Shown here piece after piece: positions 17,165 to 52,278 of a stretch of 64,000 nt of DNA. The DNA comes from Sulfolobales archaeon. GTDB lineage: Archaea > Thermoproteota > Thermoprotei_A > Sulfolobales > AG1. The position numbers and the translations under genes are program-made. The notes beneath the pieces were generated by a model. The model was not told where the DNA came from and did no database searches. It was given only the letters and a program-made list of their open reading frames with translations. The DNA lies in NCBI GenBank assembly GCA_038867615.1, contig JAWBYA010000002.1, positions 96,001-160,000 on the forward strand, written 5' to 3'. Within the stretch, counting starts at the first letter, position 1; the number at the start of each line of letters is the position of its first letter.

Positions 17165-17623
17165 CTATATGTCTAGCACTATAGAGACCCTCCAGAGATC
17201 TCCGACCCTCTCTATAGCCATTTGCGAGTATGTTACGGCTTTCACAACTATTCCGGGAGCGTGTTTCCTGGGATCGTATCTCTCGCCAGCAGCAAAACCC
17301 TTCAATATATAGCTCTGCTCTCCCCCCTCCTCAACCCTATATATGCCTTTTACAATGAATCTGGAGAAGACAAGCCCGCGAGTATCGTGGAGTATTATGA
17401 GATCCTCTAGCCATCTGTATAGGAGGTTCTCAAGATCTATGCCTCTGCATGTGAGCTCAACACCAATTATAGGCGATACCCTCGATAGATCTGGCGATAT
17501 ATATCTAAACATCCCCAACGCAGCATATTCGAAGAGCTTCTCAAGAGACTGGGATTCCACTATATACATCACATCCGCTGTATGCTCAACCTCAACTATC
17601 CTACCCATAGTGTCGGTATCCAT
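17165..17623 (-). CDS. Archease (RtcB activator)
   Basis: EHTADV, LLYRWLEDLI, VKAVTYS, C-terminal LDI. Confidence 0.93.
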   Translation of the reverse strand: MDTDTMGRIVEVEHTADVMYIVESQSLEKLFEYAALGMFRYISPDLSRVSPIIGVELTCRGIDLENLLYRWLEDLIILHDTRGLVFSRFIVKGIYRVEEGGEQSYILKGFAAGERYDPRKHAPGIVVKAVTYSQMAIERVGDLWRVSIVLDI

Positions 17624-19731: not shown

Positions 19732-20361
19732 TTGGAGAGGGGCTTCGACGTCGGTATAAGGGTAAAGCTTGTTAATGCTGTTAAGAGGCTTTATTTGAGA
19801 GGATTCAACTCAACCTTTTCTGGTAATGTGAGTGTCAGGAGTAGTTATAAAGACCACTTCTGGATAACCCCTAGGGCTTGTGATAAGGCCTCGCTAACAA
19901 TAGAGGATCTAAGCCTAGTCAATATAATAACAGGCAATAGGATCATGGGTGCAGAGCCCTCTTCAGAGTATAGGGTTCACCTAGAGATCTATAGGGCTAG
20001 GGATGATGTTAACGCGGTGGTTCACACACACCAGGCCTACACCATGGTAGCATATAAAGCAGGGCTTCTAAAGAGAGAGCTTCTTGAAGAGAGCTATGAG
20101 GCTAAAGCATACCTAGGAGGCATATCATACGTACCAAGGTTAGAGCCGGGAAGCTGGGAGCTGGCTAAGGCTGTGTCACAACAATTAGCGGATAAGAAGA
20201 ATGTTGCTGTTATAATGGATGGGCATGGAGTGGTGCTTATAGGCGGTAGCATCGATGAGGCTCTCAATAGGGCTGAGATCCTCGAGATGGAGGCTATGAG
20301 GCTCGTTAACCTAGCCCTTCTGGGGGTTATCAGGATTGATCGTGATCAGAGCTGGGGATAA
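19732..20361 (+). CDS. Class II aldolase/adducin family protein (FucA/MtnB-like)
   Basis: GNVSVR, PSSE..VH, VVHTH, GHG. Confidence 0.9.
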   Translation: MERGFDVGIRVKLVNAVKRLYLRGFNSTFSGNVSVRSSYKDHFWITPRACDKASLTIEDLSLVNIITGNRIMGAEPSSEYRVHLEIYRARDDVNAVVHTHQAYTMVAYKAGLLKRELLEESYEAKAYLGGISYVPRLEPGSWELAKAVSQQLADKKNVAVIMDGHGVVLIGGSIDEALNRAEILEMEAMRLVNLALLGVIRIDRDQSWG

Positions 20362-20803
20362 AATAACCGTGGTTAAAGGGGACGAGAGGTATAGGGAAGG
20401 GGAAGTAATAGATCTTTTCGAAGCATCCTATCTAGTCTATAGCGGGAGGGCAAAGGCTATCGATGAAAAAGGCGAAGAGCTTGGAGTAAAAGAGCTCTTT
20501 ATGAGATATGCCAGCGGCGACCTATGGTGGATATACTTCACAGTATTTACAGACCTAGCATCCAGGGGGAGGAGGATTAGGAGAGGCTATGGCGAGAGGA
20601 GCATCATAGTCGAGCATGAGGGTGAGAAATACATGGTATATGTTACAGAAGAGGGTGCTAGAGTACCTCTCATAACCCTCCTCTCATGGATCGAGAGCTC
20701 CCAGCATAAAGACCTGATCCCGGTCATAGCGGTTGTCGACATGTATGGTGATGTCACATACTACCAGGCTATGAGTGTATCCCTAAAAAGGCTACAGCTA
20801 TAG
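20336..20803 (+). CDS. tRNA-splicing endonuclease structural (beta-type) subunit
   Basis: LFEASYL, VFTDLASRG, IAVVDMYGDVTYY; EndA-like fold without the catalytic motif. Confidence 0.75.
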   Translation: MIVIRAGDKITVVKGDERYREGEVIDLFEASYLVYSGRAKAIDEKGEELGVKELFMRYASGDLWWIYFTVFTDLASRGRRIRRGYGERSIIVEHEGEKYMVYVTEEGARVPLITLLSWIESSQHKDLIPVIAVVDMYGDVTYYQAMSVSLKRLQL

Positions 20804-42815: not shown

Positions 42816-43415
42816 CTAGCTACGCCCAGGATCCTTTCTAGCTATACCTCTAAGAACCTCAACAGCCCTTCTCCTGAACTCCTGGATATCGATACCATCG
42901 TTAACTATCATTATATCAGCCATTGCTATAACGCCTCCAAGCCCTAGCGAGAGTTCTAGGGAATCCCTTGCAGCAAACTCCTCCCAGCTCTTCGGATCCC
43001 CCTCCCTCCCCCTACTAGAAAGCCTCGCAAACCTGGTTTTAGGGCTAGCATGTATACCAACAATGATCACTTCCGAGAAGCTCTTTCTAAAAACCTCGAT
43101 CTCTCTCAAAGATCTCGAACCATCTATAACAACATAGCGACACCCCTCCGGACCTCCACGGCTCGAGAACACCTCACCAACCGTCATCTTGGCAACGAAA
43201 TCATCACCATATATCTTCCTAAGCTCTACAGCAACCATAGCCATGTTACTCCTGGTTATGGGAAGACCCCTCCTAACAAGCTCTCTCCTCACCACATCGC
43301 CCATAACATATACCTCGAAACCCATCTCCCTAGCGGTCTCTGAGAATATGCTCTTACCAGAGCCCGGCATGCCTGTAACCACGATGGCTATGACGCACTC
43401 GGTTTTCGTATCCAA
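42816..43415 (-). CDS. Archaeal P-loop nucleotide kinase (UPF0200/CoaE-like)
   Basis: TGMPGSGKS, MGDVVR, IDGSRS, RGREGDP, AMADIMIVN. Confidence 0.88.
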   Translation of the reverse strand: MDTKTECVIAIVVTGMPGSGKSIFSETAREMGFEVYVMGDVVRRELVRRGLPITRSNMAMVAVELRKIYGDDFVAKMTVGEVFSSRGGPEGCRYVVIDGSRSLREIEVFRKSFSEVIIVGIHASPKTRFARLSSRGREGDPKSWEEFAARDSLELSLGLGGVIAMADIMIVNDGIDIQEFRRRAVEVLRGIARKDPGRS

Positions 43416-43495
43416 CGAGATACCCCAGCCCTCTATAAAGTTAGAAAGTTATAAGATAATCGAATCCCTTGTTCGAAAACCATAAATCTATATGA

Positions 43496-43555
43496 TGGCG
43501 CCGCGGCCGGGATTTGAACCCGGGTCACGGGCTATCCGCAGCGCCCACAGGCCCC
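43496..43555 (-). tRNA. 3' half of tRNA-Asp(GUC) (positions 38-76 at 43533-43496) with 22-nt leader; split-tRNA gene
   Basis: Minus strand reads GGGGCCTGTGGGCGCTGCGGAT|AGCCCGTGACCCGGGTTCAAATCCCGGCCGCGGCGCCA: T-arm, acceptor 3' strand, G73 and CCA, with no D-arm or anticodon nearby. Confidence 0.85.
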
Positions 43556-43578
43556 AGATAGATATATGTGAAGAAATG

Positions 43579-43586
43579 CTTATAAA
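43579..43586 (-). promoter_or_regulatory. TATA box for the tRNA-half transcript
   Basis: TTTATAAG lies 24-31 nt upstream of the first leader G (43555). Confidence 0.7.
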
Positions 43587-43617: not shown

Positions 43618-43947
43618 TTACACCTCTCCCTCCACTTCTTCGATCATTATTATGTTCTCCTCAGGTACTCCAAGCTCCTTGATCAATATGTTCTTTACCC
43701 TAAGCCTGTGGTCTCCCTGGAGCTCTATCCTTCCGTTCTTAGCAGTCCCTCCGGTGGCTAGTTTTGATTTAAGCATGGATGCTATTTTCCTTAGATCCTG
43801 TGTCTCGTCAAGCCCCTCTATTATTGTTACTTCTTTCCCAAACTTTCTTTTCTCTAAACGTATTTTTACAATCTGTTGTTCAACCATTAGCTGTCTACAT
43901 ATCTCTGGGGGGAGGCCTCCACATATATTCTCGAGAGAGCTTTTCAT
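43618..43947 (-). CDS. Translation initiation factor aIF-1 (SUI1)
   Basis: [32 protein letters not shown]. Confidence 0.95.
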
Positions 43948-52191: not shown

Positions 52192-52278
52192 GCCGGGGTG
52201 CCCGAGCGGCCTAAGGGGCCGGCCTGGAGAGCCGGTGGGGGAAACCCCGCGCGGGTTCGAATCCCGCCCCCGGCGCCA
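52192..52278 (+). tRNA. tRNA-Ser(GGA), intronless, CCA encoded
   Basis: GCCGGGG acceptor, anticodon arm CCGGC-CTGGAGA-GCCGG, long variable arm, GGTTCGAATCC, ...CCCCGGCGCCA. Confidence 0.97.

Follow-up and report, generated by a model that had tools for sequence, protein, structure and literature searches.

Can a transfer RNA (tRNA) gene that consists of a 3' part only still contribute to a working tRNA, and if so, where does the rest of the molecule come from? The question is raised by positions 43496-43586 of a 64,000-nucleotide (nt) stretch of DNA from a hot-spring archaeon (C2:96001-160000, here called the window), whose minus strand carries the 3' part of a tRNA-Asp gene standing alone. 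The original prediction for this site was a split, trans-spliced tRNA-Asp made of two pieces. Our analysis points to three: separately transcribed RNAs, which we call P1, P2 and P3, would together make tRNA-Asp(GUC), and the piece in the window, P3, would be the third gene of a tri-split tRNA. We put the probability that P3 is a piece of a functional tri-split tRNA-Asp at about 0.85. The source genome is labelled G000, the six genomes of its genus are G000 to G005, and the contigs mentioned are C1, C2, C3, C5, C9 and C10.

A stand-alone 3' piece with its own leader

Read 5' to 3' on the minus strand, the P3 region consists of TTTATAAG, a 23-nt AT-rich spacer, GGGGCCTGTGGGCGCTGCGGAT and then AGCCCG-TGAC-CCGGG-TTCAAAT-CCCGG-CCGCGGC-G-CCA, so the box, the 22-nt leader and tRNA positions 38-76 had been described accurately in every detail. 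The exon has neither the D arm nor the 5' strand of the anticodon stem; the 3' part of the tRNA itself is complete and does not differ from that of intact tRNA-Asp(GUC) genes in relatives. The piece lies in a gap of 202 bp between a SUI1 gene and an AAA/kinase-like gene, and there is no 5' half near it on either side, as had been said. Standard tRNA finders were expected to miss it, and neither ARAGORN nor Rfam at its gathering score calls it; the sole tRNA called in the window is a tRNA-Ser(GGA) at 52192-52278.

An assembly break at 43555 had been named as one of the observations that would refute the prediction. The stand-alone piece with leader and promoter recurs in G002 and G003 (96-98% identity over about 110 nt) and, with a variant leader, in G001, and its TATA box is conserved in all three. 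Therefore, P3 is not an assembly artefact.

We applied to P3 the canonical archaeal bulge-helix-bulge (BHB) geometry, as it is given in parts of two published accounts (PMC3218864, PMC4033280). The leader fits a BHB at the 37/38 junction in the way originally proposed, with GCGG opposite C32-U35 and with AU and A38 as a bulge, and the splicing endonuclease EndA is predicted to cleave between 43534 and 43533.

The body of P3 also matches the tRNA-Glu genes of G000 over positions 38-72, which would suit a functionless fragment, either an attachment-site (att) duplicate or a pseudogene remnant of the 3' part of a tRNA-Asp or tRNA-Glu gene. Truncated 3' copies of tRNA-Gly that resemble attachment-site duplicates belonging to an element that integrated or was excised are present in this very genome, at C3:267208-267240 near the end of C3 and at C10:79-110 and C10:41191-41241, that is, at both ends of the 41-kb C10. 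However, P3 differs from the tRNA-Glu genes, which have A73, in its G73 and encoded CCA. Its TATA box stands at the right distance, its leader has a specific and covarying partner (see below), piece and leader are kept in four genomes, beside SUI1 in both clades of the genus, the flanks are housekeeping genes with no integrase, and tRNA-Asp is otherwise missing. A dead fragment is thus very improbable.

Two probable partner genes elsewhere in the genome

A loose regular expression for the 5' half gave hundreds of chance matches, and searches by complementarity were used instead. The reverse-complement search of G000 with the P3 leader returned one match, C5:684-701 (GCGGTGCCCACAGGCCCC), which forms 18 bp with leader nt 1-18, two of them G-U. 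It follows TGTCG directly and belongs to a 47-nt unit, P2, and not to any 5' half. This mini-gene has a ATATATAAG box upstream and a T-run downstream, and its tRNA content is TGTCG only, namely U33, the anticodon G34-U35-C36 and G37. The leader of P2 contains GCUCCGGCGGC, which is complementary to GCCGCCGGGGC; the latter stands 6 nt beyond the end of a third unit, following ...CGGGCC (positions 27-32). This third unit, P1, comprises positions 1-32 plus the trailer AGGUAGGCCGCCGGGGCCGCGG. P1 and P3 are 81 kb apart on the same contig, on opposite strands and convergent, whereas P2 is located on another contig and for this reason was invisible from the window. The neighbours of P1 are a large upstream open reading frame, PheT-like by our reading, and a gene with an exosome RRP4/Csl4-type N-terminal domain.

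With at most two G-U pairs allowed, the sites of the 2.22-Mb genome (both strands) that pair contiguously with leader nt 1-18 are C5:684-701 and the antisense of the leader itself, and none of 150 shuffled leaders had any such site. Each of the three pieces also appears to have its own promoter. The motif TATA[AG] starts at -31, -28 and -29 for P1, P2 and P3 respectively, and between -38 and -22 it is present in 20 of 43 ordinary tRNA genes versus 447 of 5000 random positions. This motif and the random-position control were used in place of a stricter TATA heptamer, which was found in 15 of the 43 tRNA genes and missed P2.

Joined in silico, the three exons (35 + 5 + 38 nt) give 78 nt including CCA, that is, 75 nt plus CCA; of the 75 positions, 71-74 agree with those of 12 intact tRNA-Asp(GUC) genes from other families.

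The finding of P2 bears directly on the simplest arrangement, an ordinary two-piece split in which a 5' half with positions 1-37 pairs directly with the P3 leader. Such an arrangement does exist in the relatives G016, G039 and G040, of other families, where the 5' half lies 493-607 nt upstream on the same strand. The 5' half foreseen for G000, GCCGCGG...GGGCCTGTC followed by a complementary trailer, is nevertheless absent: the genome has no copy of GCGGGCCTGTC, and its nine GGGCCTGTC[AG] sites all lie outside any tRNA context. The sole piece with positions 1-32 is followed by AGG... and not by TGTC, and the sole trailer complementary to the leader follows a lone TGTCG. A two-piece tRNA-Asp is therefore contradicted for the assembled 94% of the genome, and we consider it highly unlikely. 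The original prediction was right about a trans-spliced piece and about a complementary trailer for the 16-nt outer-helix strand of the leader; its two-piece architecture gives way to three pieces, and the trailer belongs to P2 instead of a 5' half.

Absence of an intact tRNA-Asp gene

The assembly of G000 comprises 2.22 Mb in 28 contigs and is 94.4% complete. Its tRNA genes were compiled from three sources, namely 43 Rfam matches (including one truncated copy at the end of a contig), ARAGORN and a reading by eye of the intron-bearing genes, which gave 43 cis-encoded tRNA genes with 43 different anticodons. The usual archaeal set has 46 anticodons. By our own reading exactly three of these have no cis-encoded gene in G000: Asp GUC, Gln UUG and Gln CUG.

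The contiguous anticodon arm of tRNA-Asp, GTATGCGGGCCTGTC (positions 22-36), was found in none of the six genomes of the genus, whose completeness is 81-96%, and a looser 20-mer pattern for Asp found tRNA-Glu genes only. Among five control genomes from other families, four have this arm and the remaining one has a D-stem variant. The absence of an intact tRNA-Asp(GUC) gene, which had been proposed as a check, is thus what the search returned. ARAGORN with introns allowed does report a tRNA-Asp(gtc) with a 134-nt intron at C5:102408-102637, and we rejected this candidate: it consists of a tRNA-Gln 3' half and unrelated upstream sequence. Other ARAGORN calls with introns of several hundred nt were disregarded.

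Predicted structures and a possible splicing route

The cofold of P1 and P2 has a minimum free energy (MFE) of -55.4 kcal/mol. In this structure C27-G30 are paired with CCCG of the P2 leader and C31-C32-A form a 3-nt bulge; then follow three base pairs (GGU:GCC), an AG bulge and an outer helix of 11-12 bp, with A-A-U33 unpaired opposite. The 32/33 junction is thus modelled as a relaxed HBh' motif in which both predicted cuts, after C32 and before U33, fall in 3-nt bulges. The same motif is the cofold MFE structure in all five genomes that have both P1 and P2.

For the 37/38 junction we drew an hBHBh' motif by hand, with the anticodon stem 27-31/39-43, C32-U35 opposite GCGG, the bulges C36-G37-C and A-U-A38 and a 16-bp outer helix; all pairs in the drawn cloverleaf and motif are standard. 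The helix between the P3 leader and the P2 trailer is 16-18 bp long and was formed in cofolding. With the three strands together the MFE is -114.8 kcal/mol, and in this structure the two bridging helices are formed together with the acceptor stem between P1 and P3.

P2 would therefore serve as a bridge, its leader annealing to the P1 trailer and its trailer to the P3 leader over 16 bp. A splicing endonuclease of the (alpha-beta)2 type would cut in the bulges, and RtcB with archease would ligate the exons to give a 75-nt tRNA plus CCA. The 32/33 and 37/38 motifs share nucleotides 27-33 and are therefore mutually exclusive when fully formed. From this exclusivity we infer an ordered pathway, in which the 32/33 junction would be cut and ligated first and the 37/38 junction afterwards: splicing at 32/33 would make the C32-U33 continuity that the 37/38 motif needs, and the C32-U33 joining would complete the canonical hBHBh'. 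Such an order would also keep the 5-nt exon from release.

The leader of P3 could be used in another way, as its GCUGCGG can pair with CCGCGGC, so that the transcript alone would fold into a tRNA-like minihelix, an acceptor-T-arm hairpin that might be charged or have another role. The Rfam family mascRNA-menRNA uses the same fold and scores 28.4 bits (gathering 42.5) at 43511-43553 on the minus strand (L006:1511-1553), the tmRNA family scores 19.4 bits (gathering 47) at L006:1504-1556, and the cofold of P1 and P3 also pairs the leader with the acceptor strand. Both Rfam scores are nevertheless below gathering, and the heptamer of G001, GCCGUAG, retains only six of the seven pairs. The helix with P2 and the central helix of the BHB both require these very leader nucleotides, and a minihelix leaves P1, P2 and the missing tRNA-Asp unexplained. 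The fold is probably a by-product of the other pairings of the leader, and there is very little chance that it is the purpose of P3.

Comparison with related genomes

The comparison covered 30 loci, drawn from 40 relatives in the same order. The tRNA-Asp(GUC) gene is intact and intronless in 13 loci of various families (one of them cut by a contig end), and it has one intron at 37/38 in six (G015, G034, G037, G028, G008 and G012). A contiguous gene with two introns was found in two loci, G009 (L010) and G007 (L019), both of the sister genus g3. Three loci, G016 (L015), G039 (L016) and G040 (L025), have a 3' half with a leader, and upstream of it the 5' half with a complementary trailer that has been described above; stand-alone 3' pieces like P3 are the four of G000, G002, G003 and G001. 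The remaining two loci (G027, G029) are tRNA-Glu and were left out. The Asp parts of G016, G039 and G040, which belong to three other families, are either genes whose 37/38 intron is very long or split halves that lie next to each other, as in Aeropyrum.

The two-intron gene of g3 reads ...CGGGCC/AGGATC...CCCCCGAA/TGTCG/GGCCGTTGGCGCAGA[TC]/AGCCCG, with the same exon boundaries and intron ends as P1, P2 and P3. Its second intron, at 37/38, begins with GGCC and ends with GCAGA[TC], and its MFE structure shows the same motif at 32/33. The leaders and trailers of the three pieces thus correspond to the introns at 32/33 and 37/38 of the sister genus.

Within the genus, P1 is present in all six genomes, P2 in five and P3 in four, and every copy has a TATA box. 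(P1 was found here by pattern search; BLAST in the family reached only 3 of 14 genomes.) In the alignment of P2 from five genomes the TATA box and the 47-nt core alone are conserved between the clades and the flanks diverge. The helix between P1 and P2 is formed by GCCGCCGGGGC and GCUCCGGCGGC in G000, G002 and G003 and by GCCGCCCAGGGUC and GACCCUGGGCGGC in G001 and G005, so that at least three pairs are changed on both sides between the two clades, as expected from compensatory changes; the P1 trailer of G004 is of the G001/G005 type. Concerning the helix between P2 and P3, the leader of G001 ends with ...GCC and the trailer starts with GGC, and two G-U pairs of G000 are replaced by G-C. The tetramer of the central helix is GCGG in G000, GUAG in G001 and GCAG in the contiguous gene of g3, and all of them can pair with the invariant CUGU.

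These changes also bear on the idea that a recent break-up left the pieces as decaying relics and that a working tRNA-Asp gene is hidden in the roughly 6% of the genome that is unassembled. A completeness of 94.4% in 28 contigs leaves room for it, and tRNA genes are sometimes left unassembled. However, this explanation would have to hold for every one of the six genomes of the genus, and a contiguous 22-36 arm is missing from them all. Moreover, the exons are invariant across the genus, the flanks diverge and the helices keep pairing through the changes, and these three features together argue for purifying selection and not for decay. Relics are therefore improbable, albeit a little less so than the three alternatives considered above.

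P3 follows SUI1 in both clades, including G001, and the split therefore predates their divergence. The arrangement in G003 is like that of G000: P1 and P3 are 81 kb apart on one contig and P2 is elsewhere, more than 33 kb from the first base of its contig, so the three loci are separate in both genomes. The only shared synteny is that of SUI1 with P3 and, within clade A, that of a membrane gene with P2. The neighbours of P1, P2 and P3 are not found beside the contiguous genes of the relatives, and no ancestral site could be named from them. A metagenome scan with a 15-base P2 pattern gave three weak matches among 80 listed loci (at least 118 stretches), none of them P2-like.

Split tRNA-Gln and splicing enzymes in the same genome

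A scan for T arms outside the Rfam matches revealed a second stand-alone 3' half at about C5:102578-102637, this time of tRNA-Gln, and two 5' halves with complementary trailers, one with anticodon CUG and the other with UUG (Table 1). As judged from these sequences, one 3' half is common to two 5' halves, which explains two of the three missing anticodons, and trans-splicing is independently evident in G000 through tRNA-Gln. Stand-alone Gln 3' halves with AT-rich upstream sequence are spread through the family, being present in five of the six genomes of the genus, in both g3 genomes and in five g2 genomes; G011 has two intact genes.

A sequence resembling a small RNA (sRNA) of the C/D-box type begins 2 nt beyond the trailer that belongs to the tRNA-Gln(CUG) 5' half, at C2:273582-273630 on the plus strand (L004:183-231). 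It matches the Rfam family sR20 with 28.4 bits, below the gathering score of 44, and may be co-transcribed with the half.

The EndA subunit and the archease that had been noted in the window are indeed encoded there. The EndA subunit is a structural, beta-like one, whose nearest solved chains are 3p1z_A, 3ajv_A, 2zyz_A (PAE0789) and 3iey_B (NEQ261); the catalytic alpha subunit and RtcB are encoded outside the window. The presence of both alpha and beta-like subunits indicates an enzyme of the heterotetrameric (alpha-beta)2 type, which, according to the parts of PMC5829648 and PMC4033280 used here, cleaves non-canonical and relaxed motifs. The RtcB of G000 is 96-99% identical to records of uncultured or little-described Desulfurococcales and Desulfurococcaceae.

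Some other tRNA genes have introns. A tRNA-Trp gene with a 59-nt intron (C1:317891-318026, plus strand) lies about 1.5 kb from the EndA alpha gene. The tRNA-Glu(CUC) gene of G000 (C3:236292-236381, minus strand) has a non-canonical intron of about 14 nt in the D-loop (...GGACAA/GCCCTGCGCCGAAA/GTATGC...). The D-loop intron is also in all five tRNA-Glu genes read in G001, G004 and G005 (L059, L060 and L063-L065) and is absent from the tRNA-Glu(UUC) genes of G000, G002 and G003. In the tRNA-Pro(CGG) gene (C1:210089-210191, minus strand), by our own reading, two non-canonical introns flank the anticodon loop; ARAGORN miscalls this gene as Thr(cgt).

Table 1. Locations of the tRNA-Asp pieces, their surroundings, the tRNA-Gln halves and the splicing enzymes in G000 (window positions unless a contig is given)
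Feature	Location	Strand	Remarks
TATA box of P3 (TTTATAAG)	43579..43586	-	24-31 nt upstream of the first leader G
P3 gene, whole	43496-43555	-	about 60 nt; 22-nt leader and positions 38-76
P3 leader (GGGGCCTGTGGGCGCTGCGGAT)	43534..43555	-	22 nt, GC-rich; read from the sequence
Leader nt 1-16 (GGGGCCUGUGGGCGCU)	43540..43555	-	outer helix h' strand; complement of the P2 trailer GGUGCCCACAGGCCCC on C5
Leader nt 17-20 (GCGG)	43536..43539	-	strand of the central 4-bp helix of the 37/38 BHB; predicted to pair with C32-U33-G34-U35
Leader nt 21-22 (AU)	43534..43535	-	with A38, predicted 3-nt 3' bulge, from canonical BHB geometry
Exon 3	43496..43533	-	tRNA-Asp positions 38-76: A38, GCCCG, variable loop UGAC, T arm, CCGCGGC, G73, encoded CCA
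T-run (TTTT)	43476..43479	-	17 nt after CCA; possible archaeal terminator
SUI1 gene	43618-43947	-	flank of P3
AAA/kinase-like gene	42816-43415	-	flank of P3
P2 mini-gene	C5:660-706	+	GCTCCGGCGGCGCCCCCGAA-TGTCG-CGGTGCCCACAGGCCCCCGCTA; 20-nt leader, 5-nt exon, 22-nt trailer
P1 gene	C2:58285-58345	+	GCCGCGGTAGTATAGCCCGGCCCAGTATGCGGGCC (positions 1-32), then AGGTAGGCCGCCGGGGCCGCGG, then TTTT; CTTATAAG box upstream
tRNA-Gln 3' half	C5:102578-102637 (L003:129-188)		GC-rich leader GGGGCGGCGCGCCGGGGAGAA, join at 37/38, CCCGGCT-A-CCA (A73)
tRNA-Gln 5' half, CUG	C2:273527-273580 (L004:128-181)		trailer complementary to the 3'-half leader
tRNA-Gln 5' half, UUG	C9:3025-3079 (L005:126-180)		trailer complementary to the 3'-half leader
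EndA structural (beta-like) subunit	20336..20803	+	155 aa; PF01974 32.4 bits (cut-off 27)
EndA alpha (catalytic) subunit	C1:316186-316440	-	197 aa; outside the window; PF01974 110 bits and PF02778
Archease (RtcB ligase cofactor)	17168..17590	-	PF01951 126.8 bits
RtcB	C5:117134-118438		PF01139 577 bits

Weighing the evidence for three pieces

The evidence is at the level of DNA: sequences, complementarity, covariation, promoter boxes, homology with the two-intron gene, the absence of an intact gene and the presence of the enzymes. Transcription, the transcript ends, the cleavage sites, the order of splicing and the function are what we infer from it.

Several points weigh against the tri-split tRNA-Asp. 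Regarding the structures, the drawn 37/38 conformer has -71.8 kcal/mol, 15.6 above the MFE of -87.4 kcal/mol, whose structure retains the long helix with its register shifted to a 3x3 internal loop. The transcript ends were guessed from the spacing of the TATA boxes and from the T-runs, and cutting both motifs before ligation would pose a mechanistic difficulty for an exon of 5 nt. Regarding complementarity, the test of the 18-nt leader becomes weak with unlimited G-U pairs (two sites versus a mean of 0.32, with 2 of 60 shuffles reaching two). For the 11-nt P1:P2 helix, complementarity by itself does not reach significance: with all G-U pairs allowed there are 62 sites where the shuffles average 44, and 12 of the 60 shuffles had at least as many. 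The covariation is based on just two sequence classes of related genomes.

Other points concern the coverage of the data. The assembly of G000 is 94% complete, so an unassembled intact gene retains a small probability. The searches found no P3 in G004 (81% complete) and G005 (93% complete) and no P2 in G004; with such completeness these gaps are uninformative either way. The contigs assembled from four metatranscriptome runs list no exon junction, and the coverage of 43496-43533 is shared with tRNA-Glu; their loose ends, at 43533, have the sequence of Glu anticodon arms. One X15 contig of 1,968 nt covers 43504-43556 without differences and then continues into a different upstream sequence with a TATA-like box, and this contig may be DNA or RNA of a relative.

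Known split tRNAs and meaning of the finding

The published systems are compared here as they appear in parts of the cited papers. In these (PMC4033280, PMC4390854, PMC10714607) tri-split tRNAs are named only for the tRNA-Gly of Caldivirga maquilingensis. The tri-split as found here resembles this system in having three transcripts from separate loci, the middle one of which carries the anticodon, in the complementary leaders and trailers that would form BHB motifs, and in leaders that correspond to introns at the same positions in relatives. However, the Caldivirga case is a tRNA-Gly of the Thermoproteales, and ours is a tRNA-Asp of a Desulfurococcales-type lineage. The Caldivirga pieces are described as a '5' quarter' and an 'anticodon-loop' transcript, with a 3' half as the third, whereas the 5' piece of G000 extends to position 32 and its middle exon has just 5 nt (33-37). 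In contrast to Caldivirga, no piece is common to several isoacceptors, because only one site pairs with the P3 leader. This tri-split tRNA-Gly was reportedly described by Fujishima et al. in PNAS in 2009.

Chan et al. (2011) described a tRNA-Asp(GUC) that in A. pernix and T. aggregans is encoded as two neighbouring halves, with the split at 37/38 (PMC3218864). These have the same isoacceptor, nearly the same mature sequence and the same 37/38 hBHBh' with a GC-rich stem as the tRNA-Asp studied here, and their 3' half, like P3, stands alone, with a length of about 58 nt, a separate promoter and a roughly 20-nt leader. Nevertheless, their two halves lie side by side, about 160 nt apart, whereas we find three pieces with an extra break at 32/33. 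The published cases were supported by RT-PCR (reverse transcription-polymerase chain reaction) and Northern blots, among them the split tRNA-Asp of A. pernix, which is backed by RNA evidence (PMC3218864); the tri-split tRNA-Asp is known from DNA alone.

N. equitans (Randau et al. 2005) likewise has dispersed halves, helices between leaders and trailers, and an (alpha-beta)2 EndA (PMC3218864, PMC4390854). Its tRNA-Gln(UUG) is split at 32/33 (Table 1 of PMC3218864), the same site as the first break here, and one 3' half of its tRNA-Glu is common to two 5' halves, as in the tRNA-Gln of G000. It differs in having two pieces per tRNA, and the six split tRNAs that the parts used list for it do not include tRNA-Asp. 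Full-text literature searches, whose scope did not extend to supplements and subscription journals, found no report of a three-piece tRNA-Asp or of a tRNA-Gln split at 37/38.

The closest relative of the three pieces is the two-intron tRNA-Asp of g3, with identical exons (1-32, UGUCG and 38-76), intron sites, intron ends (AGG.../...CCCCCGAA and ...GCAGA[UC]) and predicted motifs. However, its introns are hairpins of 21-22 and 16 nt within a single transcript. Here a chromosomal break stands in place of each hairpin loop, together with a new promoter and terminator, and the outer helix is longer (11-13 and 16 bp).

For annotation the consequence is practical, as standard tRNA finders report this genus without tRNA-Asp and tRNA-Gln and can thus mislead assessments of completeness and codon usage. 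For the splicing machinery, the 5-nt exon is a concrete test of how EndA and RtcB handle a micro-exon and of the order of trans-splicing. Split tRNAs are central to the debate on whether tRNAs began as halves or were broken up later. If our reading is true, a tri-split tRNA exists in a second lineage and for a different tRNA. A single order shows the series of intact, one-intron and two-intron genes (the latter in the sister genus), adjacent halves and three dispersed pieces, and this series argues directly for 'introns first, splits later'. We consider it more probable than not that this is a second, independent origin of a tri-split tRNA, with an essential tRNA depending on a 47-nt anticodon mini-gene, an obligatory 32/33-first order and a micro-exon that is never free; g3 would then preserve the two-intron ancestor, so that every stage between intron and chromosomal split is recorded in the lineage, and, together with the family-wide split tRNA-Gln, the clade would be an experimentally accessible one of ongoing tRNA gene fragmentation.

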